This document shows positions 22,685-41,880 of a stretch of 56,776 nucleotides of DNA, in pieces. The stretch lies in the sequence record NC_027378.1; one strand, given 5' to 3'. Numbering within the stretch: position 1 is the stretch's first letter; the number at the start of each line of letters is the position of its first letter. Below the pieces are notes generated by a model. The model was not told the DNA's origin. It did no database searches and was given only the letters and a program-made list of their open reading frames with translations. The position numbers and the translations under genes were made by a program. The DNA comes from Escherichia phage Seurat.

Positions 22685-22713
22685 TATATTAAAACAGACC
22701 CGCGAAGGGTCTG
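22685..22713 (-). terminator. intrinsic terminator after the DNA polymerase gene
   Basis: CAGACCC-ttcgc-GGGTCTG followed by TTTTAATAT on the minus strand. Confidence 0.55.
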
Positions 22714-22723
22714 CAAGTAGAAT

Positions 22724-24709
22724 TTAGGCGTATCCCATGTCTTCGAGATACTTCTCTGCTTTAGCTATATAAGCATCATAATCTATGTCGTCCGGCACTT
22801 TATCCGGTAGCGTCATGATCGGAACACCTCCCGCGCTACCAGCTACACGGTTGCCCGTGTTAGCATAGATTATTTCAGGTGTTTCTTCATTAGTGCTTAA
22901 GTACCAGCGTACAACCTTACCCAAAAATTCGCCATTCCATACCGCGCCGCCTTTTACCGCACGTAGGATAATGAATTTTCTAATATCGTTGCAATTGCGT
23001 ATAGTACGAGAAACAGGCGTACCGTGGGCCAAACATTCACATACAGCTTCCATAATGATCTCACCAGTACAGTTCTTTTGAAGACCTGTCTTTGCGAACC
23101 ACCCTTTACGTTTAATTTCAACATTTCCTTCCTCGTCAGGTTCTTTTACTGCAACATAGTTATTGACGTTAGCGCTGTACAGCTTGTCATAGTAGTTGGA
23201 CTCCATTTCAAAGCCTGTCACGGATTCCCACCACTTGATCATATTATCAACGAAGTCCTGCATATGGTCCGGATACTTAACCACAATACCATCCGTGTTC
23301 GCTGAAATTACTTTAACACCATTTAACTCAAATGCTTCAATAAGCATCAACAGTGATAGCTGCCCTGTTAATGTAACTTGTATCAATAATTGCGGCGCGT
23401 AAAGGACAGACCACATAGACCCCAGCTTACCAAACGATCCGTTAATAACGATCTTCAGCGTGTTGGCTGTGTTCTTGTCTCCGCTGTGCTTAGCTGCAAT
23501 ACGGCGGTCTACAATACTTTTATAAACACGAAGGAACGCTGGTCCCAACTGTTCTGGATATAAGCCCTGATTAAGAATGATTGAAGGATAATAAGACGTT
23601 ACGTCAATGTCCCGCTTTTTGATACCAGGCTCTTTACCGTGGCCAGCACACTCTTCGGAGCTATGTAAACCACCAATACCCATACGGTAGACACCGTCTG
23701 CAATCTTGATCTCAAGACCTGTTAATGCTGGAGGTAAGCTGACACCACCGTTATCGCTAACAATAAAGCGACAGTCCCGAACAATATCAAGAACACTATT
23801 CATCAAAGGTGTTTGAAAACGAATAAAGTCCGGTATGTTGTATGCATACTTTGTTCCAGGATAAACTTGCGGACGCTGTGGGCGCACGCCCGTTAACGCT
23901 TGGATTTCGTGCTTAATTACGTCTTCTGCAATCTGTGCATCGGAGCGTGAACGTAGATCCACACCGTATTCTTGCGACATAATTTCACGCAAGTGAATAG
24001 GCTCTTGCAATGCAATAAAACATTCTTCTGTTTGTACAAGGTCGTTAATACAGTACCAGCGTACAATTAACATCTGGTCCTGCGTTAACATGGTATTGGG
24101 TTTGAACGGTAAATCCTGCATACGTCGAGTATGTACACGTCCGCCGTATTGTTTCAAACCGCCGGACCCAGGCAGCACTTCCATGATATCAATGTGGTTA
24201 ACGTTCTGCATACGCTTGAGACGGTAACTTTTCAATACATCCGAAGGACGCCAGTCTTCAACGATTATCTTATCGGTCGCGTCTTTAAGCTGCGCATTAG
24301 AACAGCCGTTAAGCGCAAGCGTAGCAATGGGCATATCGTACCCGTTACCGTTAAAGCTTACGATAAGGAAGTTTGTCATTACCCAGTTAAGTAATAAGCA
24401 ATTCAAACTACAACCGTGATACATCTCGAAGTAGACAACTTTCTTAGTTCGCACTCCGCGAAATGCAATTAAAAAATAATTTGGATAACATTCTATATCA
24501 TATACAAGCGGTTCGCGGTTAATCCATGCTTGAATAAGTTCGTCCTGTGTGTACAGGTTGTATTGGAAGTTCCGCGCTTCCTCAAGATTAGGCAAATAAT
24601 CCGGGCGCTCCCAAGTGCGCTCCGGCGGTAAACGTTTAACCTTTTCTTTTTTTGCTTTTGGCTCAGGCGGTAAGTCCTGCCAAAAGAAACCAATAGCATC
24701 TGTCCGCAT
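22724..24709 (-). CDS. family B DNA polymerase with 3'-5' exonuclease domain
   Basis: Exo motifs YDIECYPNYF, FNGNGYDMP, WYCINDL; polymerase motifs DVTSYYPSII, KIVINGSFGKLG, SANTDGIV; track start is TTG at 24763, reset to the ATG at 24709. Confidence 0.8.
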   Translation of the reverse strand: MRTDAIGFFWQDLPPEPKAKKEKVKRLPPERTWERPDYLPNLEEARNFQYNLYTQDELIQAWINREPLVYDIECYPNYFLIAFRGVRTKKVVYFEMYHGCSLNCLLLNWVMTNFLIVSFNGNGYDMPIATLALNGCSNAQLKDATDKIIVEDWRPSDVLKSYRLKRMQNVNHIDIMEVLPGSGGLKQYGGRVHTRRMQDLPFKPNTMLTQDQMLIVRWYCINDLVQTEECFIALQEPIHLREIMSQEYGVDLRSRSDAQIAEDVIKHEIQALTGVRPQRPQVYPGTKYAYNIPDFIRFQTPLMNSVLDIVRDCRFIVSDNGGVSLPPALTGLEIKIADGVYRMGIGGLHSSEECAGHGKEPGIKKRDIDVTSYYPSIILNQGLYPEQLGPAFLRVYKSIVDRRIAAKHSGDKNTANTLKIVINGSFGKLGSMWSVLYAPQLLIQVTLTGQLSLLMLIEAFELNGVKVISANTDGIVVKYPDHMQDFVDNMIKWWESVTGFEMESNYYDKLYSANVNNYVAVKEPDEEGNVEIKRKGWFAKTGLQKNCTGEIIMEAVCECLAHGTPVSRTIRNCNDIRKFIILRAVKGGAVWNGEFLGKVVRWYLSTNEETPEIIYANTGNRVAGSAGGVPIMTLPDKVPDDIDYDAYIAKAEKYLEDMGYA

Positions 24710-25449
24710 TAGACACGTTCTCCAATTAATACACCGCGAAGATTTTCCCCAAAGAATGCGCAAGGTTGCGGATATAAACTAAAGTCCGCAGTCTTAACCA
24801 CATTTTCGAGTAATAACAGGATGTCGATATTGTAAACTCCCGTTATTGATCTGTCCTGCAATACGAAGCTTGCACCTTCTGCATCATCATAATGAGTACG
24901 CGCTAGACCGTTTTCAATATATACGCGAGGACGATCTTCCGCAAAAGGTTTGATTTTATGCAAGCCCTCAAAAAGACCTGGATCAACAGGATGTGCATTG
25001 CATTGAACATTTAAAATACGACGTATATCAGGCCACTCCGCATCAATAAGCTGTGTTCGCAACCAGCGACCTTCCGGATAATGAAACGTCACATTGTTCT
25101 TGCTGACCTGAATATGTGTCGGGTTAGCTTTAATGCGCAGTATTTCTTTAATAGCAACAGACGGTATTATGCAGTCAATAGGGAATTGATTACCGAACCA
25201 ATATTCCGCAATGGTGACGTTATTTGTAGCAAACAGGCTACCGTTATTGATCAGAATACCGCAAGCCCACGGGCGGGATGCATCTGAGCCTACGAACGGA
25301 GCAACGGACTTCACACCGTGTACGAAGCGAGCACCGTCTATTTCGTATAAATTGCCTTCAGGGAATACGTGAGGTGTTTCCTTGTCAATACAGCGTATAG
25401 CAACACGAAACGGTCCGGACTTGATATTAAGTTTACCGTTAGCCATCAT
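24709..25449 (-). CDS. hypothetical protein between DpdA and the DNA polymerase
   Basis: About 247 aa; start set at ATGATG preceded by AAGGAAAA; stop overlaps the polymerase ATG (TAATG). Confidence 0.45.
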   Translation of the reverse strand: MMANGKLNIKSGPFRVAIRCIDKETPHVFPEGNLYEIDGARFVHGVKSVAPFVGSDASRPWACGILINNGSLFATNNVTIAEYWFGNQFPIDCIIPSVAIKEILRIKANPTHIQVSKNNVTFHYPEGRWLRTQLIDAEWPDIRRILNVQCNAHPVDPGLFEGLHKIKPFAEDRPRVYIENGLARTHYDDAEGASFVLQDRSITGVYNIDILLLLENVVKTADFSLYPQPCAFFGENLRGVLIGERV

Positions 25450-25609
25450 TGTTTTGTTTTCCTTGTGCATTAAACCATGTACCTGACGGATCCTGCCATT
25501 GCTTAGGTGTCTTGTGGAGAAATACTACTCTGTTTTCACCGTAATAATTAATTCTTACGCCTGTGTGAGTATATTTACGTTTACCTTTTGGTCTTCTTAA
25601 GTTAGCCAT
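25439..25609 (-). CDS. small basic protein (56 aa), not in the ORF track
   Basis: ATG overlaps the DpdA stop (TGATG); MANLRRPKGKRKYTHTG...; no internal stops. Confidence 0.3.
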   Translation of the reverse strand: MANLRRPKGKRKYTHTGVRINYYGENRVVFLHKTPKQWQDPSGTWFNAQGKQNNDG

Positions 25610-26529: not shown

Positions 26530-26732
26530 TTTTGGAATGGTCCTCCAAACTGATCAATTAGTTCTAAGGTACGCCATGCATTATTAAATGCTTCGTCCGC
26601 TTGATGTTTAGCGTCAATAAGCTGCTGCTTTAAGACATTTGTAGGAGCATCATTCTGTATTGCAGAGCAAGCATCCGCAGTACCTGCTTTAAGCTTGTAG
26701 AATGCAGCTTCTAAAATTAATTGTCTTGACAT
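26526..26732 (-). CDS. hypothetical protein
   Basis: Start reset to MSRQLILEAAF... with RBS GGGGGA. Confidence 0.35.
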   Translation of the reverse strand: MSRQLILEAAFYKLKAGTADACSAIQNDAPTNVLKQQLIDAKHQADEAFNNAWRTLELIDQFGGPFQK

Positions 26733-26803
26733 ATTTCCCCCAATGACTAAAAAGCCCATACCAGTATTATGACCGATATGGGCTTGATCTGTAAAGCTAT
26801 CTA

Positions 26804-27412: not shown

Positions 27413-27448
27413 GGTTTGCAGTTTCCTTGTTTGTTAATGTGGTCATAC

Positions 27449-28524: not shown

Positions 28525-28526
28525 TT

Positions 28527-29834: not shown

Positions 29835-29835
29835 C

Positions 29836-30024
29836 TTAGAACCCTTTAAGGCTAATATTAAGATTAACGACCACTTGTTCAACTACATCATCAGATGTCA
29901 TCTGACGCTTATGAATTTCAAGCTCCGAATGTATGTTCTTGGATGCAGCACGACAGATAGCGTCATTCAGCTCGTCTTGTAAACGTTGCATCTTCTGCAT
30001 AAGAATCACAGTCTCTTCATTCAT
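29836..30024 (-). CDS. hypothetical small protein
   Basis: 62 aa, helical, charged. Confidence 0.4.
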   Translation of the reverse strand: MNEETVILMQKMQRLQDELNDAICRAASKNIHSELEIHKRQMTSDDVVEQVVVNLNISLKGF

Positions 30025-30229
30025 CTTCTACACCTTTAATATCACAAGGATTGATTGTTACATTTGACATCACAATTGGATGATTGCGTGCTCCGATTGT
30101 ACTAACGTGATTAATATCTAATTCTACATGCACGCCCTGCATAGTAGCGTGAGCAATTGAAGAATTAAGTTTTTCTACCAGCTCAGTGATCATTTCCTGA
30201 TGCTGTTTCGCTTCTTCCAAAGTGATCAT
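30017..30229 (-). CDS. hypothetical small protein
   Basis: 70 aa. Confidence 0.4.
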   Translation of the reverse strand: MITLEEAKQHQEMITELVEKLNSSIAHATMQGVHVELDINHVSTIGARNHPIVMSNVTINPCDIKGVEDE

Positions 30230-30484
30230 TTAAACCTCCGTTAATGTTTGAGTCCAGTCTAAGCCTTCAAGGTCTACATCAGCTATTTCATCGTACTCGT
30301 AAGCTCCCGGATCTGCTGGCAGCCATCTATCAAATCGATGGCTGAGTTCTGGAGGAATTGCTTCATACCCCCAAACCTTCCCATCCTTGTCGGCTGCCAG
30401 ATAATCAACTCGACTTGGAACGGTTAAAGCGACACCACAAAAATTAACATCTTTAGTATGCACAACCTGACTTAATACACGCAT
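30230..30484 (-). CDS. small acidic protein, member of a three-copy paralogous family
   Basis: VPSRVDYLAADKDGKVWGYEAIPP...GLDWTQTLTEV shares motifs with the 51099 and 51682 proteins. Confidence 0.5.
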   Translation of the reverse strand: MRVLSQVVHTKDVNFCGVALTVPSRVDYLAADKDGKVWGYEAIPPELSHRFDRWLPADPGAYEYDEIADVDLEGLDWTQTLTEV

Positions 30485-31191
30485 TATTCCACCCCGATAT
30501 ATTTGTGGACCTGAAGCTGCAACGTGTACCCGTGTTTCATACAGCTTTGGACAACCGCTTGGATATTACTGTGGTTAAGGTCTTCATCCTGCTCGTCCAT
30601 TGGCTGTAAATATATCTTACCCTTGAAACCCTTCGGAGGTCTAGCGATAAATGGCGTAGCTTGATGATCTAATGCCTGAAGCGGCAAACCATCTTCCACG
30701 TTTACACAGCACGCTTTAAGTACATATTTAAATGCATTAGCGCGGCGCAGCACAGAAGGATGAATCTTTGAGGTCTTGGGACTACATACAATTACAGGTA
30801 ACTGGGAAAAGTTCTTAGGTAAAGGCATAGACCCATTAGTTTCAATTTGCACCAAATAGCCGCGCGATAACAGTTGTTCAATAAACGGGTTAATTTGCTG
30901 ACGGAACGGTTCACCCCCAGTGATAACCACAAGTGAGGTGCTATTACCTGATTCCAGCTTACGGCTTTCGATTAAACGCATAATATCAACAATATGATAA
31001 AGACTACGACCAACAGTATAATCGGTATCACAGCCAGGGCATTGCAGATTACACCCAGCAAGACGCACAAATACAGCAGGTTGGCCGCAGAATGGACCTT
31101 CACCCTGAATGGTAGAGAATACCGAATGCACGTCTAAATACATATCGTTTTCTTTAGAACGGGACTCGGGAGCTTGTTGATTAATATTCAT
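30484..31191 (-). CDS. queE: 7-carboxy-7-deazaguanine synthase (radical SAM)
   Basis: CNLQCPGCDTDY cluster-binding motif near the N-terminus; 235 aa. Confidence 0.85.
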   Translation of the reverse strand: MNINQQAPESRSKENDMYLDVHSVFSTIQGEGPFCGQPAVFVRLAGCNLQCPGCDTDYTVGRSLYHIVDIMRLIESRKLESGNSTSLVVITGGEPFRQQINPFIEQLLSRGYLVQIETNGSMPLPKNFSQLPVIVCSPKTSKIHPSVLRRANAFKYVLKACCVNVEDGLPLQALDHQATPFIARPPKGFKGKIYLQPMDEQDEDLNHSNIQAVVQSCMKHGYTLQLQVHKYIGVE

Positions 31192-31202
31192 CTTAAATCC
31201 TC

Positions 31203-31235
31203 TAGTGAAAAAGAAAGCGCCTCATTGGGCGCTTT
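31203..31235 (-). terminator. intrinsic terminator
   Basis: AAAGCGCC-caatga-GGCGCTTT followed by CTTTTTC on the minus strand. Confidence 0.55.
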
Positions 31236-31260
31236 CATTATAACGTGATATGTTTTGATA

Positions 31261-32073
31261 TTACAAGCCGTTCAGGGCTTCCGGTACTGGCATAGGTACG
31301 CGACCAGTTACACCATTAAACTTCTTCCAACGTGCATACTGAGTTTTAACGGTATCTTCGTTCAGACCGTGGCGACCTGCCAGATTCAGAACATAAGAGA
31401 TCGGAGCAGGCTGACCCAGCGTAGCGCTAATCTGATCCATCAGAGCCCAGGCACGACCGCAGGAAGTTTCAGGTTGCGGACGACGAACACCATTCTGTTC
31501 GGGCATACGGTTCGCTTCTTTCGCTTTTTCACGTTCAGCTTTTTCGCGGGCTTTTTCAGCAGCCTTTTCAGCCTGTTTAGCAGCGCGGATCTTGTCTTTG
31601 AAGCCTTTGATAGACGAATCCAGTTCGTCAACCATGCTCTGAGCAGCAGTTACTGCACCGGACAGATCTTCACCTTTGGATTTTTTAACAACTGCTTTCA
31701 GATCTTTCAGAGCATTCTTTAAATGCTTCAGCTGTTCGGAACCCTTAGATTCTGCTTCCGTAATCTGTTCAACAGTGCTTTCATCGGTAATACCGGATAA
31801 AGCAAGCTTCACGGTTTCAACTGCCTGGGAAAGAGTGGTAAATTTATTTTCCGCTTCAGTACGAATTTCAGCTTGTTTCTTTTCAGCGGCAGCTTTTTTC
31901 TCTGCTTCTTTTTTCTCTTTTGCTACGCGTGCAGCTTCAGCAGCAGCGGCTTTTTTAGCTTCTGCGTCGTTAGCAGTAGCTTCTTTCTTTGCAGGCTTAG
32001 CAGATTTTGCAGCGGCAGCAGCGGCTGCGGCAGCAGCGGCTTTCTTATCTTCAATATTACTCATTTTCTTCAC
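31261..32073 (-). CDS. Lys/Ala-rich histone H1-like protein with a C-terminal globular, possibly DNA-binding, domain
   Basis: N-terminal KKAAAAAAAAAAAKSAKPAKKE... low-complexity tract; C-terminal WALMDQISATLGQPAPISYVLNLAGRHGL. Confidence 0.5.
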   Translation of the reverse strand: MKKMSNIEDKKAAAAAAAAAAAKSAKPAKKEATANDAEAKKAAAAEAARVAKEKKEAEKKAAAEKKQAEIRTEAENKFTTLSQAVETVKLALSGITDESTVEQITEAESKGSEQLKHLKNALKDLKAVVKKSKGEDLSGAVTAAQSMVDELDSSIKGFKDKIRAAKQAEKAAEKAREKAEREKAKEANRMPEQNGVRRPQPETSCGRAWALMDQISATLGQPAPISYVLNLAGRHGLNEDTVKTQYARWKKFNGVTGRVPMPVPEALNGL

Positions 32074-32192
32074 TCCGAATTATTATGGGTTCGTTTGTTA
32101 CCAACGGGGTTAAATGTACCAAAGGATTTTGTGACACGCAACCCCTTACATAAACATTTTTTAAAAATATTTTTGATCAGGGTTAGAACTTA

Positions 32193-32687
32193 TTAGCTCT
32201 TCGCACCTCTGCCCGGTGTCCATGCGGCTTGCAATGCGGGTCGCTCACAAATGACCCTGGCACCGGAAATAATACCACCCTCCCGTTCAGCATCGTATTT
32301 GACACGGGCAGGTTTCCAAAGTCCTTCATCCATTGACGGTACGTATTGTCCAAGTTGAGGCGAGCAAAAGCCCTGGATATCATATTCCACACAGAATTCG
32401 GCTTGTGCGCTAATTTGGGCGTGATCCAGGATTGTTTCTGGAAGTTGCGTAAAGTAATCAGACAAAATGCGCTCAACGATTTCCCGTTCATATGGTGCAG
32501 CTCCTAAGTTTTCTGTCAGGTTAATATAAAGCATTTGAAGATCAACATCTTCAAGATCTTTTAAATCGTTTACCGGTGTTACCAGTGTTGACTCTGGACA
32601 ACAGATAATTCCAAGTTGGTGTAGTGTCAACCAATTGGGATGTTTTGCCAAGAGTTCAAATTTATCTGTATCAATTAGGACGTACAT
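32193..32687 (-). CDS. hypothetical protein
   Basis: 164 aa. Confidence 0.4.
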   Translation of the reverse strand: MYVLIDTDKFELLAKHPNWLTLHQLGIICCPESTLVTPVNDLKDLEDVDLQMLYINLTENLGAAPYEREIVERILSDYFTQLPETILDHAQISAQAEFCVEYDIQGFCSPQLGQYVPSMDEGLWKPARVKYDAEREGGIISGARVICERPALQAAWTPGRGAKS

Positions 32688-32696
32688 TGCAATCCC

Positions 32697-32731
32697 CTAT
32701 AAATAAGTAATGCCCCAATAGTAGGGGCATT
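32697..32731 (-). terminator. hairpin, terminator-like, after the helicase gene
   Basis: AATGCCCC-tactatt-GGGGCATT followed by ACTTATTTATA on the minus strand. Confidence 0.4.
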
Positions 32732-32746
32732 AGATGTTGAAGTCAA

Positions 32747-34723
32747 TTAGAACGGAACGTAATCCGGATCATCTGCTTGCACAGGATTAACCACATTGTT
32801 CACTGTTATACCTTGCGTATTCTGCGAAACAATATCGTCCCAGCTTACATCATCGTTATAGCTCGGACCTTCGGTTGTTCCATCCTGCCCGTATACTTTA
32901 ACCTGAATAGCTTGGTCGTCCTGCGGAGCTTCAAACTTACCGAAACACGTACCATCATAATCATAGTTCAATATCTCAGGCCATTTCTTATTGGTATGAA
33001 CTTTGATGTATTTTGGTGTTTTAAGCATTGCAGCAACATCAAGAGCTTCTTCAATAGTTTGTGGTAAAGGTAAATGTGTCCTTTTCTTCCACCATGCGAC
33101 AGCTTTACGACCTGCCCAGTCCCCATGAAGCAGAGCTACCCATTCACTGAATATTTTACTACCGCAATAATAAGTCACCTTCATTGTTGGAGGTTTAGAG
33201 CTGTCATTGCGTTTAGTATGCTTTGCATAAGTAACATGCGTAACTTTGAAGTCTTCAACTACTGGAATATCCTGCTTGATCAGGGCTTCCGTACTTGCAG
33301 CTTTCTTGAGTTTGGTCTGGAACTTAAACTCATGACCGCAAAAGCCTTCTTTAACGTAATCCGTCCCGCGTAGCCTAAATCCTTTCAGATATAATTGTTG
33401 AACTTGTTCCTGTGTGACGCTGTCCATTGGGATTGGTGCGAAGCCACCGCAATAGCGAGCAGATGCATGATTATACGACCCACATACATCGCATTCTTTA
33501 ACCGGAGCAGTACCAGCACCTTTTTCGCCAGGTCGCTTGGGTTTAACAGGGTCGTTAATAGGGCCCAAACGGCGCGTATTACCGCTGAAATCCAGTACAA
33601 GGCAGTTCTGCTTGGGGCTTGCTGCAATAGCTTGTAAGCGCCCCTCCTGCGTGGAAAGATCAAACCCCTCCGCGTACACCGGACGCGTACCGCGACCCAG
33701 CATCTGGACCCATAGCACCGCCGATGCAGTGGGGCGGAGCATGATAATTAAGTCCAGCATTGGATGATCAAAACCTGTGGTTAAGACGTTATTGTTAGTT
33801 AATGCTCGAAATTCACCGCGCTTAAACTTCTCAATAATCTCGTCACGTTCTTTTGCATCAAGCTTAGAGTGAATACATCCACAGCTAATACCCATATCGT
33901 TCAGCATATCACACGCGTCTTTAGCGTGTTCAATACCAGAACAAAATATAAGCCAGCTTTGACGGTCTTCACCACATTCAATCGCTTCCTCAAGTGCGCG
34001 GAGTGTTGCGTCATCGCGGTTTACCGCACTTTGCAGCTCACTCTGGATAAACTCACCGCCGCGTTTACCTACCCCGTTGAGGTCCAGCTCCATCTTAGTA
34101 CGCTTTGGCACAACCGGAAGAAGATAACCTTGCTCCAGGAACCAGTTGAAGGCTTCCGGAGTAGTTGCATCAAACGTCACCTTATCAAATAACGCATCAT
34201 CGTCTTCGTTTTCCTTAACAATTGAACCATACCCCAGTCGATAAGGTGTAGCAGTAAGGCCGATGATTTTTAAGTAAGGGTTAACTTCACGCAAAGCTGC
34301 AAAGAACTTCTTATACATTGTTGCATCACGTGGACTAATAAGATGCGCTTCGTCCACAAAAATAAGATCAACTTTGCCGAACTTTTTCGGATGCTTAGCA
34401 ACGGACGCAACTCCTGCAAAGGTAATAAGATTGTAGACTTCTTTACGCTTCAAACCCGCGCTGTAAATACCTGCTGGCGCTTCGGGCCAGACTTTCATTA
34501 ATTTATCATAGTTTTGTGCAATTAACTCTTTGACGTGAGTTAACATCATTACGCGCTGGTTTGGATACCATTTGTAAAGCAGATCGAGGAACCCCGCGAT
34601 AACGAGCGATTTTCCTGTCCCTGTTGGTAACAGGATCAAAGGGTTCCCCGCGTTACCCTTTTCAGCATCAAAATAGCGGAATACGCTATAAACTGCTTCC
34701 TGTTGATAATCGCGGAGTTGCAT
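32747..34723 (-). CDS. SF2 DEAD/DEAH-box DNA helicase with C-terminal zinc-ribbon region
   Basis: LRDYQ; Walker A LLPTGTGKSLV; DEAH box IFVDEAHLIS; motif VI GRGTRP; CDVCGSYNHASARYCGG. Confidence 0.8.
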   Translation of the reverse strand: MQLRDYQQEAVYSVFRYFDAEKGNAGNPLILLPTGTGKSLVIAGFLDLLYKWYPNQRVMMLTHVKELIAQNYDKLMKVWPEAPAGIYSAGLKRKEVYNLITFAGVASVAKHPKKFGKVDLIFVDEAHLISPRDATMYKKFFAALREVNPYLKIIGLTATPYRLGYGSIVKENEDDDALFDKVTFDATTPEAFNWFLEQGYLLPVVPKRTKMELDLNGVGKRGGEFIQSELQSAVNRDDATLRALEEAIECGEDRQSWLIFCSGIEHAKDACDMLNDMGISCGCIHSKLDAKERDEIIEKFKRGEFRALTNNNVLTTGFDHPMLDLIIMLRPTASAVLWVQMLGRGTRPVYAEGFDLSTQEGRLQAIAASPKQNCLVLDFSGNTRRLGPINDPVKPKRPGEKGAGTAPVKECDVCGSYNHASARYCGGFAPIPMDSVTQEQVQQLYLKGFRLRGTDYVKEGFCGHEFKFQTKLKKAASTEALIKQDIPVVEDFKVTHVTYAKHTKRNDSSKPPTMKVTYYCGSKIFSEWVALLHGDWAGRKAVAWWKKRTHLPLPQTIEEALDVAAMLKTPKYIKVHTNKKWPEILNYDYDGTCFGKFEAPQDDQAIQVKVYGQDGTTEGPSYNDDVSWDDIVSQNTQGITVNNVVNPVQADDPDYVPF

Positions 34724-34724
34724 A

Positions 34725-35633
34725 TCAATCTTTCCCGTAATAATTAGCTACTTGATAGTTTTGACAACCAACTTTCTGTCCTTGCGTATCCACTGAGGCG
34801 GAATGGAAATTGCAATACCATGTTCCATCTTCTTTTGGCTCAAGGAATTGACATGTGCGGCAGTTTACTTCCGGCATAGTTTTACGCCAGCATAGTGAGG
34901 AGTGATCGCACCATTTACATTCGAAGAAAGTGGAATCTTTAAATGCGCGGTCCGGAATATCTGTAGCAATAGCAATCTGCACACCACGATCAATATACAT
35001 GTCCGCGGTAACAGGATCAAACGGAATAATTTCTGCGTAAACTTCATCGTCATTCTTGTTTACTGCAAGATATAACGCTGCGCCAAGACCTAGTTTTCGC
35101 ATGTACACGTTCATCTGTACATAGTGCTCAGGTTTAGCTTCTTTGACACCTTTAGCTTTCAGCTTTTTAAAAGACTTATCGTTATGCGTCTTCATTTCGG
35201 TAAGCACAGGCATCCCAGGCTGCACGTCCGGACAACCTATAACCACACCATCACAGGAACCGCCAAAGTGTCCGCCAGCTTCGCTGATACGGAACTGGTG
35301 TCCATTTTCGTCCTGCTGATAGACCTGCATACCTGCCGCAAGAAGCATAGCAATGAAACGCGCTTCTTCCAGATGTCCACGGTTAAACAGTCGAAGCTGG
35401 CGTCCGTCAAACTCTTTGCGTGTAGCCCAGCGATATCCATAGAAAAGCTTGCGTGCGCACTGTTGCCCAATAAGGGAAGCGCCTAAGTGACTGCGGTTAC
35501 CGCTTTCAGGGCGATAAGCGTCTTCAATTGTGGGAATGACTACGCCAAGATACTTACGGTAAGTCCCACCCTGATCTTTTTGCACACCGTCATTGATCGC
35601 TTGAAGTGTTTTTTCTGCAATATAAATAGCCAT
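34725..35633 (-). CDS. PD-(D/E)xK nuclease (Cas4/RecB-like exonuclease) with C-terminal Cys cluster
   Basis: D...EMK signature (SCDGVVIG...LTEMKTH); C-terminal CKWCDHSSLCW...CRTC...C. Confidence 0.55.
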   Translation of the reverse strand: MAIYIAEKTLQAINDGVQKDQGGTYRKYLGVVIPTIEDAYRPESGNRSHLGASLIGQQCARKLFYGYRWATRKEFDGRQLRLFNRGHLEEARFIAMLLAAGMQVYQQDENGHQFRISEAGGHFGGSCDGVVIGCPDVQPGMPVLTEMKTHNDKSFKKLKAKGVKEAKPEHYVQMNVYMRKLGLGAALYLAVNKNDDEVYAEIIPFDPVTADMYIDRGVQIAIATDIPDRAFKDSTFFECKWCDHSSLCWRKTMPEVNCRTCQFLEPKEDGTWYCNFHSASVDTQGQKVGCQNYQVANYYGKD

Positions 35634-35641
35634 TGGAATAC

Positions 35642-35672
35642 CTTAGAAAAATAAGCCGTCTTTCGACGGCTT
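35642..35672 (-). terminator. intrinsic terminator
   Basis: AAGCCGTC-gaaa-GACGGCTT followed by ATTTTTCT on the minus strand. Confidence 0.55.
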
Positions 35673-35698
35673 ATGGACACTACAGAGGGAGGGTTATC

Positions 35699-36580
35699 TT
35701 ACTGCTGCCACGGCGGGACTGCTGCTTGTGCTGGATGCGGTTCAGCTTGCTGCTGCGGCTGAGCTTGCTGCTGAGGCGCTGCTGCCTGACCCGGCTGTGC
35801 TACCTGCTGCGCCCACGGCTGCTGAGCTGCTTCCGGTGCTACTGGCTGTTGTACCGGAGCTTGCTGCACTGGCTGCTGTGGTGCTGCGTTTTGAGCAGGA
35901 TTATCCCACGGCTGCGGTGCTGCGTTCTGCCACGGTTGAGCTGCTGCGCCCTGCTGCGGTGCTGGTTGCTGCACAGGTTGCTGAACAGGCTGCTGTTGCT
36001 GTACCGGAGCTTGCTGCTGTACAGGTGCTTGCTGTTGCTGAGCAAACGGGTTAGCTGCTGGCTGCTGTGGCGCTGCGCCCGGGAAAGTTGGCTGCTGTGC
36101 TGGCGCACCTGCACCAAACGGGTTAGCTACTGCTGGAGCACCCATTGATGGAGCCTCTGCTGCTTTTTCTGCATATTTAACCGGATCGTTGATGTTAGCG
36201 TAACCGTTAGGCTCGTTGCTGTCTTCATAACCTTCCTGAGAACGAACTTTCAGACGCAGGTTCAGCGGAATGTTATGCAGCTGAGCAGGGGTATCCCAGC
36301 GAATTACACCAACCGCATGGGACAGAGCACCCAGTTGCTCGTAAGCGATGCGTACAGTATCTTCGTTGTCGTTAATGACGTTATAACGAGCAAAGATTTT
36401 ACGCCCTTTAGCAAAACCGTCAATGATGCTAAACGTTACCTGGATCGCCATACCGCCATTTTTGGTCGGTTTAAATTCAGATGCTTCAATTACTGCTTTA
36501 TACCAACCTTTCGGCAATGCGCCGTAAGAAGGTGCTTGATAGCTGCTCGCGTCAAAGTGGAAATTAGTTGGCATAGTCAT
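35699..36580 (-). CDS. putative ssDNA-binding protein with a Gln/Pro/Ala-rich disordered C-terminal tail
   Basis: Globular N-terminal about 150 aa, then about 140 aa of QQPVQQ/APQQ repeats; adjacent to the Sak4-like ATPase. Confidence 0.45.
   Translation of the reverse strand: MTMPTNFHFDASSYQAPSYGALPKGWYKAVIEASEFKPTKNGGMAIQVTFSIIDGFAKGRKIFARYNVINDNEDTVRIAYEQLGALSHAVGVIRWDTPAQLHNIPLNLRLKVRSQEGYEDSNEPNGYANINDPVKYAEKAAEAPSMGAPAVANPFGAGAPAQQPTFPGAAPQQPAANPFAQQQQAPVQQQAPVQQQQPVQQPVQQPAPQQGAAAQPWQNAAPQPWDNPAQNAAPQQPVQQAPVQQPVAPEAAQQPWAQQVAQPGQAAAPQQQAQPQQQAEPHPAQAAVPPWQQ
35700..36130. repeat. CAG/CTG-rich low-complexity coding repeat tract
   Basis: Repeated GCTGCTG/CTGCTGC units encoding the Q/P/A-rich tail; generates spurious ORFs in several frames. 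Confidence 0.7.
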
Positions 36581-37308
36581 TAGTTGATACCTTTCATTTT
36601 GTTGATAACAGAACCTAAGTGTGGGACTTCAACCGCATCTAAACGTCCCGAACGATCCTTAGCGATTGTATTAAAGTCCGGTTGAGTTTGCAAGTAACGA
36701 TATGAGTTACCTTGCTGATCTTTATTTACATTCAGACGAAATACCTCGTCGAAGAAATAAGGGAGCATTTGTCCCAATTTGGACCCAGGCATAGATGGAG
36801 CATACGCGGTAACACCGGAGACTTCATCTTTGTCTTTGCCCATTTTAGCAGACATATAAACATGTTTGCCAGGAATATCGCGAAATTTACGGATCAGATC
36901 TTGCATCTTTTCAAGCAAAGTACCATAAGCTTGACGAGGATCTTTTGTTCCTTTTTTCGCATTGTTTAAACATTGTTCAGCAATTTCGCTCAAGCTGTCA
37001 AGCGCAATAGAATCGAAATACTGCTGGTTAGCTGGAGTTACACACCACTGATAAGCAGCTTCAACGTCCTCCAGACATTTAACTTCGATAACAGGAATGT
37101 CATAAACGATCGGCAATCCCATGTTACCATAAACACGATTAAGGTTTTCCGCTGCAATAGATAACAGACCGGACTCTGCGCTGATCAAAATTGGTTTAGG
37201 TAGTGTGGCTACAAGGCTGGTTTTACCCATACCCGCTTCACCGTAAACCAGAATTTTAACGCCTGTGTCTTGCACTACTTGTGAAGACATTTTAATTTCA
37301 ATGGCCAT
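36580..37308 (-). CDS. RecA-like core ATPase (Sak4-like recombination protein)
   Basis: Walker A VYGEAGMGKTSL; about 240 aa; adjacent to SSB-like and nuclease genes. Confidence 0.6.
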   Translation of the reverse strand: MAIEIKMSSQVVQDTGVKILVYGEAGMGKTSLVATLPKPILISAESGLLSIAAENLNRVYGNMGLPIVYDIPVIEVKCLEDVEAAYQWCVTPANQQYFDSIALDSLSEIAEQCLNNAKKGTKDPRQAYGTLLEKMQDLIRKFRDIPGKHVYMSAKMGKDKDEVSGVTAYAPSMPGSKLGQMLPYFFDEVFRLNVNKDQQGNSYRYLQTQPDFNTIAKDRSGRLDAVEVPHLGSVINKMKGIN

Positions 37309-37373
37309 TTAACGCCTCTCTTTTAAGTTCGTGCTCATTGTAACGTAATATACTTTGAACCCTCAATTACTTT

Positions 37374-38294
37374 TTAATCTAAAGCCTGATCAGTTTCATC
37401 GCGGAAATGCATAAAGTTAGCAAAACGCGGTTTATCTTTAACGCCATGAGGAAAGTGTTTATATGAAATAGTCCGACCTTTAATCTTGTCAGGGTTATTC
37501 CAATAATAAATCTTATCCTCTTGCGTTAATTTACCAGGACTAACGTTGATTGTATTGCCCGTCTTAACGTCTTTACAAACAAGCGTCCCGATCATACCGT
37601 TAGGAACTTTATTTTCCTGATGTGAAGATCGTGTAGTCCTTCCCAGCTCGTTAACAGTAGCTTCATTAAGATTAGTTTCACCCTCAATAATATCGAGGAC
37701 AATAGCGTCTTCCTGAATAAAGCGTTTAATACGAAGATATCCACCTTCTCGAACTGTACCGCGCCCATGCTTGTAAGGCTTGTTTGGATCACGGATAATA
37801 ATACCTTCATAACCCATATCAAGCCAGATGTTTTCCCAGTAGAGCAACTCTTCTAAAGACTTAACCACATACATCGGCACAACTTGCAGGTCGAGCAGTT
37901 CGCCTTTCGCGTGCTGTGTGGTTATAAAATCTTTCATCATGTTGTAGCGTGCTTCATAGCCCAGCTCTGCAACACTTTCCGCGCACAGATCAAAGATGTG
38001 CCATTTCAGGAACGGTTCGCCTTCAATTGTGTTTACCGCACTGGTTGTTTTACGGCACAGATCCGGGTCCGTTTCAACTCCTGCCGCAAGCTCACCATCA
38101 TAGCCCATGTACTGGGGACCGCTGAAAATTGCGCTTGTATGGCGGTTTTTAAACAGCTTTAAGCTGCGCCCTACTATTTGCCCATCCGGATTTAAACCGC
38201 GTACACCGTCGATTTTAGGCAGTATGCAGCACGGAAACTTAATCTTTTCTTCAACCGCGTCAGTTGCTAAATGTGGTTTAAATGCCATTTGCAC
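37374..38294 (-). CDS. ATP-dependent DNA ligase (minimal type)
   Basis: Nucleotidyltransferase motif I LPKIDGVRG, motif IV EGIIIR; 306 aa. Confidence 0.75.
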   Translation of the reverse strand: MQMAFKPHLATDAVEEKIKFPCCILPKIDGVRGLNPDGQIVGRSLKLFKNRHTSAIFSGPQYMGYDGELAAGVETDPDLCRKTTSAVNTIEGEPFLKWHIFDLCAESVAELGYEARYNMMKDFITTQHAKGELLDLQVVPMYVVKSLEELLYWENIWLDMGYEGIIIRDPNKPYKHGRGTVREGGYLRIKRFIQEDAIVLDIIEGETNLNEATVNELGRTTRSSHQENKVPNGMIGTLVCKDVKTGNTINVSPGKLTQEDKIYYWNNPDKIKGRTISYKHFPHGVKDKPRFANFMHFRDETDQALD

Positions 38295-38940
38295 CTCTAT
38301 TCATAAAAGAATGTACGAATTTTAATTTACGAATACGCTCATCGCGTTCTGCAACAGCTTTATCGTCTTCTGAACGAGCAGCCGAACAAACTTTCTCTTT
38401 CATACGAATATTACGACGTAAATGTCCGCTACCCTTTTTAGGTCTGTTTTCCTTTTTCTTTGCTTCGGAAATAAGCTCTTTGCATTCCTGCAAACGGATC
38501 TTGCTTCTTTCCAATCGCATAGCAGAACGCGCACGTTCATCACAAAATCTTTGAGCTTTGCTACGCTGGTCCTGATTACTTGTATGACCTTTAACGTGGC
38601 GAAACTCAATAGTAAGGTTATATTTACGAAGTTGATCGTTCAACCATTTGAAAGCTGTACCTTCCTGTTCGCTTTTCCAGCTTGCCTCTTTATAAACTTT
38701 AATAGCAGTTGAACAATCTGTTTGGACGATTAGATGATCACCCGATTGAATTAAATTAGCTTTTAACCCTTCCCAAATAACATTACAAATCGCCATTGTT
38801 TCGGCGGCATTGTTATCCGGAGCACCGCGTAATGGACCACCGTTAGCATTATTTCCACGGTTACAAACTACCCATCCGCCATAGCCTGCGGCTTTTGTAT
38901 TTGGGCAAAAACTTGCATCAGAAATAATTGTTACTCTCAT
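38278..38940 (-). CDS. rnhA: ribonuclease H (RNase HI-like) with a basic C-terminal extension
   Basis: VTIISDASF...GYGGWVV; NNAAETMAI; LIVQTDCS; RHVKGHTSNQDQRSKAQRFCDERARSA; colinear with E. coli RNase HI motifs. Confidence 0.8.
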   Translation of the reverse strand: MRVTIISDASFCPNTKAAGYGGWVVCNRGNNANGGPLRGAPDNNAAETMAICNVIWEGLKANLIQSGDHLIVQTDCSTAIKVYKEASWKSEQEGTAFKWLNDQLRKYNLTIEFRHVKGHTSNQDQRSKAQRFCDERARSAMRLERSKIRLQECKELISEAKKKENRPKKGSGHLRRNIRMKEKVCSAARSEDDKAVAERDERIRKLKFVHSFMNRGANGI

Positions 38941-38945
38941 TGTTT

Positions 38946-38978
38946 TTCCTTAATAAAAAGGGGTCGAAAGACCCCCTT
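38946..38978 (-). terminator. intrinsic terminator
   Basis: GGGGGTC-tttc-GACCCC followed by TTTTTATTAAGG on the minus strand. Confidence 0.5.
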
Positions 38979-38983
38979 GTAAG

Positions 38984-39214
38984 TTATGCAGGAATAGATT
39001 CTTCCGGTTCTTCAGGGATCACGATTTCAATCTCTTCTTCATTTTGGAAGGTTAGACGGAAACCATCTCCCGGGCGCCCAAAAGCAAAGGTAAGGGCTAT
39101 CGTATTATCCTGCTCGTAATGACAGATACTTTCTACTTTCATTTCGTTACCGTAAAAGTCACGGTAAATCATTCCAGGAAGCGCATCGGTCGCTTTGATC
39201 TTTCTTACAGCCAT
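38984..39214 (-). CDS. hypothetical small acidic protein
   Basis: 76 aa. Confidence 0.4.
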   Translation of the reverse strand: MAVRKIKATDALPGMIYRDFYGNEMKVESICHYEQDNTIALTFAFGRPGDGFRLTFQNEEEIEIVIPEEPEESIPA

Positions 39215-39225
39215 TATTCCCCCGT

Positions 39226-40017
39226 TTACAGTTTGTCTTTGAACTCTTCGATATATTGCTCGATCGGATACTGCTTACGCTTGAAACGATCAAACAAGAT
39301 TTTAGCAGATTCTACGTCTTCGTCGCTCTCTTTACTTGCGCCCGGTGCCATAAAATCACGCCATGTAAAACCGTTCAGATTATGCATCTTAGCGATGTGC
39401 TTGTTGTAACGGCTTTCCCAGTCCACACGCGGACCTTCCATCGTGCGTAAACCGCGCCCAAGCACCTGTACATATAGATCTTTCTGACGTTGTACAGCTT
39501 CACCATTATAAGGTCCGGTTTTAAACTCAACAACACTACCGTTAAGATCTGCACCATCCGCAAAGTTGTGTAGCATAGTTTCAATAACGTCATTCAATGT
39601 TGGAACCGTCACTTTTCCCTGGGCAATACCTGCCAAATAACCGACGTTTTCTTCACCGTACAACTCGATCAGTTCTTTCTTGGTCGCTTCTGCTTCTTTG
39701 TTTGCGGACAAAGCCAACATCTGTTGTTCGAACATGTGTTCCTGTTCCAGGAAGTGAGCATAGCGCTCTTCGTCTACTTTGCACACAATCCATTTATATT
39801 CAACATCCTTGCTGAAGTCCGGATACTGATCTACTTCTACTACTTCCGTAGTAAAGAACTTGCCGTTATATTGAATAACAACTGTATCGCCCGGCTGCAA
39901 TTCGTCACTTTCCAGAGCACGGTATGTATAAAGACGACCACCCGCTTCAAACTTAACTTTGACAGTTACAACGCCTTTTAACAGAGCATGATAAGCTTTC
40001 TGAAATTCTTTACGCAT
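39226..40017 (-). CDS. hypothetical protein
   Basis: 263 aa. Confidence 0.45.
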   Translation of the reverse strand: MRKEFQKAYHALLKGVVTVKVKFEAGGRLYTYRALESDELQPGDTVVIQYNGKFFTTEVVEVDQYPDFSKDVEYKWIVCKVDEERYAHFLEQEHMFEQQMLALSANKEAEATKKELIELYGEENVGYLAGIAQGKVTVPTLNDVIETMLHNFADGADLNGSVVEFKTGPYNGEAVQRQKDLYVQVLGRGLRTMEGPRVDWESRYNKHIAKMHNLNGFTWRDFMAPGASKESDEDVESAKILFDRFKRKQYPIEQYIEEFKDKL

Positions 40018-40058
40018 TTTAGTTTCCTCTTGGGCGGATTGACCGCCCGTTAATGTGG

Positions 40059-40469
40059 TTAGGCTTTATTCGGCACAATTTCCAGAGACGCGGAACCAAC
40101 TTTCGATTCAACGCACTGGTTAAAGACTGCGGCTTGCTCCGCTGTAAGTTTACGCCAAGCCGCAACTTTCAACACAGGTTTATTTTCCACAAGCTGATCA
40201 ACGTTAACACCAACTTTAATCAGATCGCCCAGGATTCCGTTAAGGCTTGGAAGATCAATCTTGCGATCAATCTTGTGTGTCATTTTCATAACCCCGCCAG
40301 TAATTTCAACTTTATTAGTCCCTTCTGATGGAGCAGGGAAATAGGACTTAATAATCTTTTCGCGTAGTGCTCGCTCGCGAGCTTGAAGCTTTTGTAATTC
40401 TGCTTTGGTTTTATACCACTCAATGACATCTGCTTCGGTTGCTTGTACTGCTTTATCTGCGTCGAACAT
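40059..40469 (-). CDS. hypothetical protein
   Basis: Start reset to MFDADKAV... with RBS AGAGGA; about 136 aa. Confidence 0.45.
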   Translation of the reverse strand: MFDADKAVQATEADVIEWYKTKAELQKLQARERALREKIIKSYFPAPSEGTNKVEITGGVMKMTHKIDRKIDLPSLNGILGDLIKVGVNVDQLVENKPVLKVAAWRKLTAEQAAVFNQCVESKVGSASLEIVPNKA

Positions 40470-40493
40470 TTTTCTATCCTCTGTTGTGTTTCG

Positions 40494-40530
40494 ATGTATG
40501 TATAATAGCACATCCATGTGACAGGGCAAG
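40494..40530 (-). promoter_or_regulatory. sigma70-like promoter
   Basis: TTGCCC-N16-TATTAT on the minus strand about 30 nt upstream of the 40469 start. Confidence 0.35.
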
Positions 40531-40710
40531 ACTCAATCTGTATCAATTAATCTTTTTAAACGGATTAGTAATCTAGCAACCTTCCTCCATTCAGCATCCT
40601 CCATTAATGGTGAAGGCTTATATGCTTCAGGTATCGGACAAGGTATATATGGCTCCATGTCAGATATTACTTGCTTTGATAACTTTTTCTTCCGTTTACC
40701 CATAAATAGC

Positions 40711-41298
40711 CTATTTCAAATAGCGGGAAGTCATAATTGGCTGCAAAGACACTTCTTCCTCAGATGTAACCACATTAGCAGACGATCCAGTGGACCCGAA
40801 GCCGTTAGCACCGCGCTCAGTGGTCTTAAGCTCGTCCACTTCTACCAGTTGCACGCTGGGCAGCTTAATAAGCATAGCTTGCGCAATGCGATCACCATGA
40901 TTGACAGTAAAACTACCATCGTTATCAATAGTAATCTTAACCTTAACTTCTCCAGTGTAGTCGCTATCAATGACGCCCACGCAGTTTGCTAGACGCACGT
41001 CGTTTTTGAATCCGTGTCCGCTACGGGAATAGACCATAAGCGCGTAACCTTCAGGAATATCAAACGCTAACCCTGTGCGGAATATGTGCTCGTAAGAGAA
41101 AATAATTTGTTCACATCCATCTTCACTCTTAAGGTCCGCGTGCAGGTCAAAGCAAGCTGCCCCAGCACTGGCAAACGATGGCAGGATTGCGGTGTCTGTT
41201 AAGCGTTTTACCCCGAGAAGAGTTGGCGCAAAGGATGCAGCAGTTACGCTAGAATTAGTTATAGAAATAGTGTGCATATTATTTAATACGTCCGTCAT
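40711..41298 (-). CDS. dut: dUTP diphosphatase
   Basis: Motifs AGAACFDLHA, YSRSGHG, GVIDSDYTGE, GDRIAQ, RGANGFGSTG. Confidence 0.85.
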   Translation of the reverse strand: MTDVLNNMHTISITNSSVTAASFAPTLLGVKRLTDTAILPSFASAGAACFDLHADLKSEDGCEQIIFSYEHIFRTGLAFDIPEGYALMVYSRSGHGFKNDVRLANCVGVIDSDYTGEVKVKITIDNDGSFTVNHGDRIAQAMLIKLPSVQLVEVDELKTTERGANGFGSTGSSANVVTSEEEVSLQPIMTSRYLK

Positions 41299-41307
41299 AA
41301 TTTCACC

Positions 41308-41805
41308 TTATTGGATTGAACCGCGATCAATTAGCCATTGTTTCGCGTGCGCTTTAAAAATAATGCGGTAGTCATCAAGACTAATTTCCGCGCGGATGGA
41401 ATCTTTAACTTCATACCACTGCCATTCACCATTACTGAAGACAACCGGATTAAGTGGTAGAACAACCTTCCATCCTTTACGTTCTATTTTATACATCAGA
41501 ACTGGATATCTGCCAAGCTCTTTAGCAGATTGAACAGTCTGCTTCCACCATGTGTTTACTTGTGGTGTAGCATGGTTTTTTACTTCAACTGCATGGTGAC
41601 ATGTATTGCTAATGTCGCAACCACCGACCGCACTTTGATTCTGGTTACGCTGAGCAATAGGTTTTTCCGGTAACTGCATCCCCAGCTCTGCGTAGATTTC
41701 GGCATAAATTGCATTAAAGAAATCACATACTTCCCGCTCACCGCGTTGACCTTTAGCGCGAATATTTACTGCCATGTTTGTCTCCATAACTTTAATGTAA
41801 AACAC
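41308..41805 (-). CDS. PD-(D/E)xK endonuclease, Hjc-like Holliday junction resolvase (putative)
   Basis: KGQRGEREV...GGCDISN...HAVEVKN pattern. Confidence 0.5.
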   Translation of the reverse strand: MFYIKVMETNMAVNIRAKGQRGEREVCDFFNAIYAEIYAELGMQLPEKPIAQRNQNQSAVGGCDISNTCHHAVEVKNHATPQVNTWWKQTVQSAKELGRYPVLMYKIERKGWKVVLPLNPVVFSNGEWQWYEVKDSIRAEISLDDYRIIFKAHAKQWLIDRGSIQ

Positions 41806-41847
41806 TTCATAAAGAATTTTATATTGAAGTTATGTTGATCGCAAGGA

Positions 41848-41880
41848 ACAAAAAAGCCCAGGCATAAGGATTCCTGGGCT
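41848..41880 (-). terminator. intrinsic terminator
   Basis: AGCCCAGG-aatccttatg-CCTGGGCT followed by TTTTTT on the minus strand. Confidence 0.6.

Follow-up and report, generated by a model that had tools for sequence, protein, structure and literature searches.

Internal partial terminators (attenuators) are known in Escherichia coli, e.g. the rplL-rpoB attenuator and the rpsU/dnaG terminator, as well as in filamentous phages, which carry a terminator after gene VIII. They are placed between cistrons, with the next cistron beginning only a few nucleotides (nt) further on; read-through is needed and the distal transcripts are stepwise less abundant. In this study we analyzed ten hairpins with U-tracts, distributed over the leftward gene block of Escherichia phage Seurat (sequence record NC_027378.1; the 56,776 bp of this record, hereafter the window, comprise essentially the whole genome of this Seuratvirus of the Queuovirinae). 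The arrangement resembles that of the internal attenuators, from which it differs in that up to seven elements lie in series over approximately 20 kb, which would lead to strong compounding unless the sites are weak or promoters re-supply transcription. That the ten sites act as terminators, or are at the least hairpin and U-tract elements under selection, is very likely, because their structure is conserved within the genus and unrelated hairpins occupy the same junctions beyond it.

Taken individually, the elements reveal no structural difference from the canonical intrinsic terminators of E. coli and phages that are the targets of ARNold and TransTermHP. They share with them a GC-rich stem of 8-14 bp, a loop of 4-10 nt (including several tetraloops of the GNRA/UUCG type), a 3′ U-rich tract, co-orientation with the genes and a location after stop codons. 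They would thus be standard Rho-independent (intrinsic) terminators, an ordinary feature of phages, and we infer that they terminate transcription in vivo. Many such terminators and transcription units, with attenuation and read-through, have been described in the long-read transcriptomes (ONT-cappable-seq) of Pseudomonas phages (Putzeys et al. 2024, PMC10914365). These phages also have dense genomes with overlapping units; their sites were mapped experimentally, whereas those of Seuratvirus are known from sequence. Phage HdK1 (genus Nonagvirus; GenBank MK373794) belongs to the same subfamily as Seurat and has the same gene order, with terminators at the same junctions; it differs in that the DNA polymerase gene is the last one of its block. 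The source paper of the HdK1 record (Korf et al. 2019, PMC6563267) cites the ARNold predictor. Terminators of this kind are already known from the HdK1 annotation. No terminator is annotated at these sites in the Seuratvirus records CAjan, WildeMaa, SLUR75, KS_A3, GottfriedDienst and STP-SP5, and the searched literature contained no transcriptome, Term-seq, promoter or terminator study of Seuratvirus, Nonagvirus or Queuovirinae.

Ten hairpins and the gene units they close

The window is composed of rightward structural genes (to approximately 21.1 kb), a leftward block (from approximately 49.8 to 21.1 kb) and a second rightward block (from approximately 49.8 kb to the end). The names and order of the leftward genes were obtained by mapping the proteins of CAjan onto the window. 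They are, in the first part, primase, gp61-60, RusA, dUTPase, gp57-54, RNase H, ligase, Sak4, a DUF669 protein, a Cas4-type exonuclease and helicase, and, in the second part, gp47, gp46, QueE to QueC, YhhQ, QueD, FolE, gp36, DpdA, clamp, DNA polymerase and gp31-26. No tRNA genes were found in the window, and the retrieved portions of the related records contain no annotated phage RNA polymerase.

The first-pass annotation had placed at least six minus-strand terminators in this block. All six (T1-T6) are present at the positions given; each consists of a hairpin, perfect or nearly so, with a T-rich tail behind it, and the folding energies range from -13.6 to -21.9 kcal/mol. The number was an undercount: seven sites lie within the range that it considered and ten within the whole leftward block, those overlooked being Tb (inside the range), Tc, Ta and Tend. 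The energies of all ten fall within the limits given for T1-T6, with z values of -3.2 to -7.0 relative to shuffled sequences (-3.2 to -5.1 for T1-T6).

Significance was assessed with a strict rule (perfect stem of at least 6 bp, free energy of -9 kcal/mol or lower, at least 5 T in 7) and 200 dinucleotide shuffles. Between positions 21100 and 49780 this rule found 9 co-oriented sites, compared with 0.99 ± 1.04 in the shuffled sequences (maximum 5); at a free energy of -13 kcal/mol or lower the numbers were 9 and 0.14. The tenth site marks the end of the leftward block. All co-oriented strict matches in the block are intergenic, though approximately 88-92% of it is coding. Two other scans were rejected. 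A loose built-in rule listed T1-T4, but dropped T5, whose T residues were taken up by a greedy stem, and T6, which has a 10-nt loop; overall it found 25 sites versus an expected 19.6 ± 4.6, which is not significant, and it cannot discriminate. A first permissive scan based on RNAfold gave about 80 matches per strand and was unusable for statistics.

The elements are described below in the order of transcription, on the minus strand unless indicated otherwise. Tc (43172-43197; bidirectional) directly follows the stop codon of primase, faces gp62, a small rightward gene, and closes the unit gp64-primase. T6 (41849-41886), before RusA, closes a unit composed of a small open reading frame (ORF), gp61, gp60 and a noncoding stretch. 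Its core, AGCCCAGG-(10-nt loop)-CCTGGGCT followed by TTTTTTGTT, is the strongest of all (-21.9 kcal/mol): the 8-bp GC-rich stem can be extended to 14 bp and a U6 tract follows. The gp60 stop codon lies 306 nt upstream and the RusA start codon 73 nt downstream. T5 (38957-38978; AAGGGGGTC-TTTC-GACCCCTTT then TTATT; -14.6 kcal/mol) closes RusA-dUTPase-gp57-56-55-54 at the gp54/RNase H junction, 16 nt before the RNase H start codon. T4 (35651-35674; ATAAGCCGTC-GAAA-GACGGCTTAT then TTTTCT; -15.9 kcal/mol) closes RNase H-ligase-Sak4-DUF669, between the DUF669 protein gp50 and the Cas4-type exonuclease, whose start codon is 17 nt downstream. The next unit, exonuclease-helicase, ends with T3 (32708-32732; TAATGCCCC-TACTATT-GGGGCATTA then CTTATTTAT; -15.0 kcal/mol), followed after 20 nt by the next start codon. 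Its interrupted tail, CUUAUUUAU, is the poorest U-tract (U-tract score 1.85), and T3 is probably the weakest terminator.

The unit gp47-gp46 is closed by T2 (31213-31236; GAAAGCGCC-CAATGA-GGCGCTTTC then TTTTTCAC; -15.6 kcal/mol; z -5.07), which, at the gp46/QueE junction and 21 nt before the next start codon, forms the entry to the modification module. The latter (QueE-orf84-gp44-gp43-QueC-YhhQ-gp40-QueD-FolE), which makes up the 7-deazaguanine synthesis module, is closed after FolE by Tb (26752-26785), a 14-bp hairpin followed by TTTTTAGT (-20.8 kcal/mol; z -7.0), with the next start codon 19 nt downstream. T1 (22694-22714; GCAGACCC-TTCGC-GGGTCTGT then TTTAATAT; -13.6 kcal/mol; z -3.56) follows DNA polymerase and closes gp36-DpdA-clamp-polymerase; its T-rich tail extends to approximately 22684 and the gp31 start codon is 34 nt past the hairpin. 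Ta (21814-21837), at the gp29/gp28 junction, has a C(UUCG)G tetraloop, qualifies on both strands and closes gp31-30-29, 15 nt before the next start codon. Tend (21111-21132; bidirectional) closes gp28-27-26 at the meeting point of the leftward and the rightward structural blocks. An identical 10-nt tail, ATTTATTACG, follows two different terminator-like hairpins, at 18465-18492 (minus strand) and at 21814-21837 (plus strand).

All of these sites are on the coding strand and, except for T6, at most 24 nt 3′ of a stop codon. Four or more consecutive U residues stand at the end of the stem in seven of the ten (T6, T5, T4, Tb, T2, T1 and Ta); among T1-T6 the U-tract may be graded as canonical in T6, T5, T4 and T2, fair in T1 and poor in T3. 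The U-tracts bear on the view that the hairpins serve mainly as stabilizers or processing sites of mRNA 3′ ends, which would cause differential decay of a long polycistronic RNA with little true termination. The very stable hairpins with tetraloops (GAAA, UUCG, UUUC) directly 3′ of stop codons are consistent with such a role, as are the poor U-tracts of T3, Tc and Tend and the presence of hairpins without U-tracts in other gaps of the block (gp56>gp55 and gp65>gp64). Canonical runs of at least 4-5 U directly after the stem in seven of the ten sites argue against it, as do the U-tracts that accompany the unrelated hairpins in distant relatives; a pure stabilizer would have no need of U-tracts. 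We therefore consider this the least probable of the alternatives, scarcely credible as the main role. The two roles are compatible, and stabilization may be a second function of terminators.

The two hairpins without U-tracts are also on the minus strand. One (40018-40058; GGGCGG-TCAAT-CCGCCC) is located before gp55, and the other (45750-45810; GCTCCTC...GAGGAGC) before gp64, whose Shine-Dalgarno sequence is held in the 3′ arm; judging from this arrangement, gp64 could be under translational control.

Conservation of the elements within and beyond the genus

A megablast search with positions 30000-42000 matched 33 phage records; in 29 of them the match extends over more than 80% of the query, in most cases with 93-97% identity. 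Every record for which the taxonomy was retrieved belongs to Seuratvirus (CAjan, the SLUR phages, Bas21-25 of the BASEL collection and others); CAjan and SLUR75 are 94-97% identical to the window. The elements were compared in 11 Seuratvirus relatives, including STP-SP5, which is 81% identical. Changes affected 15.5% of the loop positions, 2.4% of the stem nucleotides and 3.3% of the positions in the U-tract tails. Thirteen stem pairs were changed: 8 can still pair (2 by a double change, 6 as wobble pairs), 3 are broken (mostly terminal ones) and 2 contain an indel.

The individual changes follow the same pattern. In STP-SP5, a C-G pair of T1 is replaced by U-G with pairing kept, T4 has a compensatory replacement of A-U by G-C as well as a G-C pair turned into G-U, and T6 has an altered loop on an invariant stem. 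An A-U pair of T2 is G-U in three relatives. The stem of T5 is kept in CAjan, SLUR75 and two further genomes, with the loop TTTC swapped for AACA, GAAA or AAAAA, and that of Tc is likewise kept in relatives with a flipped or changed loop (TTTC, GAAA, ATTT, AAAC). In three relatives, both arms of Tend contain inserted nucleotides, G and C, that match each other. Tb is identical at 48 of 48 nt, STP-SP5 included. In VogelGryff, T6 is replaced by an unrelated intrinsic terminator, AAGCGCAGCG-TGAAAA-CGTTGCGCTT-TTTTATT, with a homing-endonuclease gene inserted before RusA (locus L038, 1457-1600).

More distant comparisons were made with HdK1 and with IMG/VR loci whose exonuclease is 40-57% identical. 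HdK1 contains a co-oriented hairpin with a U-tract at five shared junctions: (i) after primase, (ii) before the RusA homolog, (iii) between DUF669 and exonuclease, (iv) before QueE and (v) between FolE and DpdA. These hairpins are unrelated in sequence to those of the window, and only their position is kept. Four of the five, including the one at the Tc position, are annotated as "putative transcriptional terminator" in MK373794, and that between DUF669 and exonuclease was seen only by our scan. At the latter junction a co-oriented hairpin with a T-tract is present in about 21 of the 24 IMG/VR relatives in which the upstream sequence is available, and at least six unrelated sequence types may be distinguished; one lineage contains a C-G to U-G to U-A series. 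Unrelated hairpins also occupy the Tb position (FolE>DpdA) in HdK1 and two further loci, and the 3′ side of helicase in four loci of one IMG/VR lineage.

Read-through, promoter-like sites and alternative readings

The distances between the hairpins and the following start codons place a constraint on the use of these terminators. In the case of T1-T5, Ta and Tb the gap is only 15-34 nt and contains only the U-tract and a Shine-Dalgarno sequence; therefore no promoter can follow these sites. The genes behind terminators without a downstream promoter include those of polymerase, clamp, DpdA, helicase, exonuclease, RNase H and ligase. Since such genes are indispensable, the terminators should be leaky, overridden or bypassed.

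The reading that we favor, and hold to be probable, is that these are intrinsic terminators at the 3′ ends of modules, read by the host, at which termination is partial and transcription is topped up from internal promoters. The host RNA polymerase would read the sites as Rho-independent terminators; each would release a fraction of the polymerases and give the upstream messages a protective 3′ hairpin. Partial termination would make the transcripts stepwise less abundant along the block, and internal promoters of the sigma-70 type, at 45.8, 42.8, 42.19, 41.84, 37.36 and 32.14 kb, would restore transcription, with sites abutting T2, T3 and Tb perhaps acting as additional promoters. Leakiness, and the assignment of a given promoter to a given unit, are thus predicted features of this model.

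Several findings weigh against it. The U-tracts of T3, Tc and Tend are interrupted, T3 (1.85) and Tc (2.80) have the lowest U-tract scores, and termination at these three sites may be weak or absent. HdK1 lacks elements corresponding to T3 and T5. With 94-97% identity in most Seuratvirus relatives, few covariation events are available within the genus, and a single genome (STP-SP5) contributed the majority. Promoter-like hexamers overall occur at the level of chance (37 found, 37.1 expected), so that individual calls are weak. A literature search that did not cover the description of CAjan (Arch Virol 2016) found no RNA 3′-end, RNA-seq or in vitro termination data for Queuovirinae.

An alternative means of passing the sites is antitermination: transcription would stop early at the first terminators, after which a phage factor or RNA would make the host polymerase resistant, resulting in later expression of the replication and modification genes. 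Phage antiterminators that act on intrinsic terminators are known elsewhere, antitermination systems including lambda N/Q, HK022 put, Xp10 p7 and P23-45 gp39. The location of essential genes behind several strong terminators without room for a promoter would fit such gates, and the phage encodes many small early proteins of unassigned function. However, boxA-like matches are at the level of chance (32 found, 30.7 expected). A PHROGs scan of ten early or unknown-function proteins (a partial protein set) returned only families of unknown function or none, with no antiterminator family among them, and Rfam gave no match in the window. As nothing positive speaks for it, we regard antitermination as very unlikely.

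The first-pass annotation had also claimed that several terminators are followed by promoter-like hexamers. This was not borne out: among the six, only T6 has such a site behind it (41844-41816, minus strand; TTGCGA-17-TAAAAT; score 11.8), before RusA, since the gaps of 16-34 nt after T1-T5 are too short. In STP-SP5 the -35 hexamer of this site is identical, the -10 hexamer is TAACAT and the spacer has diverged. The example that had been given, near 40494-40530 (40502-40529, minus strand; TTGCCC-16-TATTAT), is approximately 1.3 kb from the nearest terminator. It lies at the coding gp57/gp56 junction, over the gp57 stop and gp56 start codons, and transcription would start within gp56; its status as a promoter is unsupported.

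Six co-oriented intergenic sites combine hexamers that are kept or promoter-like in STP-SP5 with diverged spacers: 42842-42815, 42189-42161, 41844-41816, 37366-37337, 32141-32113 and 31266-31237. A seventh co-oriented promoter-like site, 45799-45770, has no alignment in STP-SP5 and is conserved only in CAjan. The first (42815-42842, minus strand) is of the extended -10 type, TGCTATACT (TGCTATAAT in STP-SP5), and is located upstream of gp61 and of an unannotated ORF of 24 codons (42712-42786, minus strand). This ORF, just upstream of the gp61 homolog, has a good ribosome-binding site and encodes a very hydrophobic peptide, MFEILKLFAGAIFVAGYFWFMYIL. The site at 32113-32141 (minus strand; TTGCGT-17-TACATT) is in the gp47>gp46 gap, with an A/T-rich stretch before it. 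That at 37337-37366 (minus strand; TTGAGG-18-TACAAT) lies in the 65-nt ligase>Sak4 gap, which contains no terminator, and has ATATYACGTTAYAATGA in common with the site abutting T2. These two sites (37337-37366 and 31237-31266, both minus strand) share the pattern TTGnnnnnTCAAAnnATATYACGTTAYAATGA, with 23 of 32 positions identical, and from this likeness they could be paralogous promoters or contain a common operator. The motif ACGTTAYAATG was tried as a general promoter consensus of the phage and rejected: it has 8 matches versus 2.3 expected, only two of them (31236 and 37336) intergenic with a -35 element, the rest being coding and without a -35 element; a version with fixed -35 spacing found nothing.

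The leaky-attenuator reading was tested against the positions of these sites: a promoter would not fit behind T1-T5, Ta or Tb, yet promoter-like sites abut or overlap T2, T3 and Tb. At T2, TTGTAA-18-TATAAT (31237-31266, minus strand; score 11.9) ends one base before the hairpin; a start about 7 nt further on would lie inside the 5′ arm, and transcripts from it would therefore escape T2. At T3, the -10 hexamer of TTGACT-17-TACTAT (32718-32746, minus strand; score 13.1; -10 hexamer TATTAT in STP-SP5) is in the loop, and at Tb the loop contains the -10-like hexamer of TTTACA-18-CATAAT (26766-26795, minus strand). Such a layout would allow efficient terminators to be combined with restart: each next unit would have a promoter adjoining or overlapping the hairpin, with its -10 hexamer just 5′ of the stem or in the loop, and the new transcripts, starting within the hairpin, could not form it. 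The block would then be a chain of insulated units, which is close to what the first-pass annotation had proposed. Besides the three sites that fit, both hexamers of the T2-abutting site are identical in STP-SP5 while 7 of the 18 spacer bases differ. In HdK1, two of the five terminators (DUF669>exonuclease and FolE>DpdA; scores 11.0 and 11.4) have a TATAAT that extends into the initial bases of the stem, and in the window and HdK1 together promoter scores in the top 0.1% occur at 4 of 15 sites, with about 0.6 expected. On the other hand, the A-rich 5′ flank of a stem, which mirrors the U-tract, easily yields TATAAT-like strings and intergenic DNA is A/T-rich, so the enrichment of -10 hexamers at the stems may be compositional. 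In addition, T1, T4, T5 and Ta lack such a site, the -10 hexamer of Tb (CATAAT) is below the score threshold, and promoter-like matches are at chance level genome-wide, as noted above. We consider insulated units of this kind unlikely, although the recurrent -10-like elements against terminator stems are worth following.

The proposal that the block is transcribed as several units rather than as one long operon thus receives partial support: ten conserved terminator-like elements lie at module boundaries, but T1-T5, Ta and Tb leave no room for a promoter. The suggested separation of modification from replication genes also holds in part. The complete set of genes for 7-deazaguanine (preQ0) synthesis forms one unit with T2 and Tb at its ends, and HdK1 has the same bracket. 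DpdA, which inserts the modified base, is grouped with clamp and polymerase outside this unit, so that the division between modification and replication is not a clean one. Attenuation and separate dosing of the modules are inferences.

Two further observations concern the same block. In comparison with CAjan, about 280 nt are absent from the window at 25454-25609 / 24709-25470. The alignment of the gp34 homolog to CAjan is restricted to residues 1-52, and that of the sliding-clamp (processivity factor) homolog begins at residue 71, in a frame differing from that of the gp34 alignment; the clamp ORF (253 aa) has no N-terminus, owing either to a natural deletion or to an assembly artifact. The second observation is a noncoding gap of 631 nt (46594-47224) with the gp66 and gp65 homologs on either side. 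At least ten copies of ACCCTATA/TATAGGGT, in both orientations (46604-46890), adjoin a very A/T-rich stretch (approximately 46900-47060), and the sequence of the gap suggests an iteron array or replication origin, or alternatively an operator field.

The noncoding stretch closed by T6 and implications for Seuratvirus

The gap between gp60 and RusA, in which T6 is located, comprises 417 nt and is noncoding. It contains no minus-strand ORF of more than 27 aa, and a coding explanation was rejected, as the small ORFs of both strands are broken in STP-SP5 by indels of 8, 1, 2, 1 and 3 nt. The sequence of the gap is conserved with 95-100% identity in 32 Seuratvirus records, and with 79% in STP-SP5. 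Its homology stops 257 nt in for five Seuratviruses (VogelGryff, SA80RD, OddieOddie, SA126VB and Dru_SM1). The promoter-like site at 42161-42189 (minus strand; TTGCCA-17-TAAGAT, in STP-SP5 TTGACA-17-TAATAT) and T6 delimit a putative minus-strand transcript of about 310 nt (41845-42154). The stretch 41845-42192 contains the repeated motifs GAACGATG and TTAAC.

The RNAalifold consensus of the minus strand has 94 pairs. Compensatory double changes were found in 7 of them, compared with 1.2 ± 1.0 in column shuffles (7 reached in 0 of 500) and 0-2 in slid controls, and the fold is specific to the minus (sense) strand because several pairs are G-U. Six of the seven compensatory pairs are within a single hairpin of 20 pairs and 58 nt (42044-42101). 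Its tip, ACCUCCUUA, is invariant in STP-SP5 although the stem below has changed, and is identical to the 3′-terminal anti-Shine-Dalgarno sequence of 16S rRNA. The exact complement, TAAGGAGGT, occurs twice in the window: once as the hairpin site itself on the opposite strand, with no start codon after it, and once at 20887-20895, as the ribosome-binding site of the gp25 homolog.

This element appears to be restricted to the genus. With blastn set for distant matches, it was seen in the 33 Seuratvirus records and nowhere else. The only IMG/VR contigs with an exact 22-mer match were three that already belonged to the comparison set, and neither HdK1 nor any of 22 distant loci was matched by a covariance model built on the hairpin. 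A search of Rfam 15 gave no match in the whole window; at E ≤ 1, positions 41700-43300 yielded only a chance match to a snoRNA (15 bits).

RNAs with C-rich loops that pair with Shine-Dalgarno sequences include RNAIII and the Rsa RNAs of Staphylococcus aureus and RoxS of Bacillus subtilis. The stretch closed by T6 resembles these in having a conserved hairpin with a C-rich loop (CCUCCU) complementary to GGAGG; it differs in that it has no Rfam family, is restricted to Seuratvirus and is predicted from sequence. We regard it as a candidate for a noncoding RNA, about 310 nt in length, or else for a long untranslated region (3′ or 5′). We propose only tentatively, as a possibility well short of an even chance, that T6 is the terminator of a structured noncoding RNA specific to Seuratvirus, with its own promoter, which could bind to messages of the phage or the host at their Shine-Dalgarno sequences.

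The presence of intrinsic terminators between phage gene modules is to be expected, and no general concept is changed by the ten elements. Their practical value lies in a transcription-unit map for Seuratvirus, a genus that is part of the BASEL collection and of work on 7-deazaguanine DNA modification. The map shows the preQ0 synthesis genes as a terminator-bracketed unit conserved across genera, and the leaky or bypassed terminators before essential replication genes constitute a directly testable prediction. More worth following than the terminators is the candidate RNA closed by T6 with its anti-Shine-Dalgarno loop; if the proposal is true, this RNA would act as a phage-encoded translational regulator or sponge.

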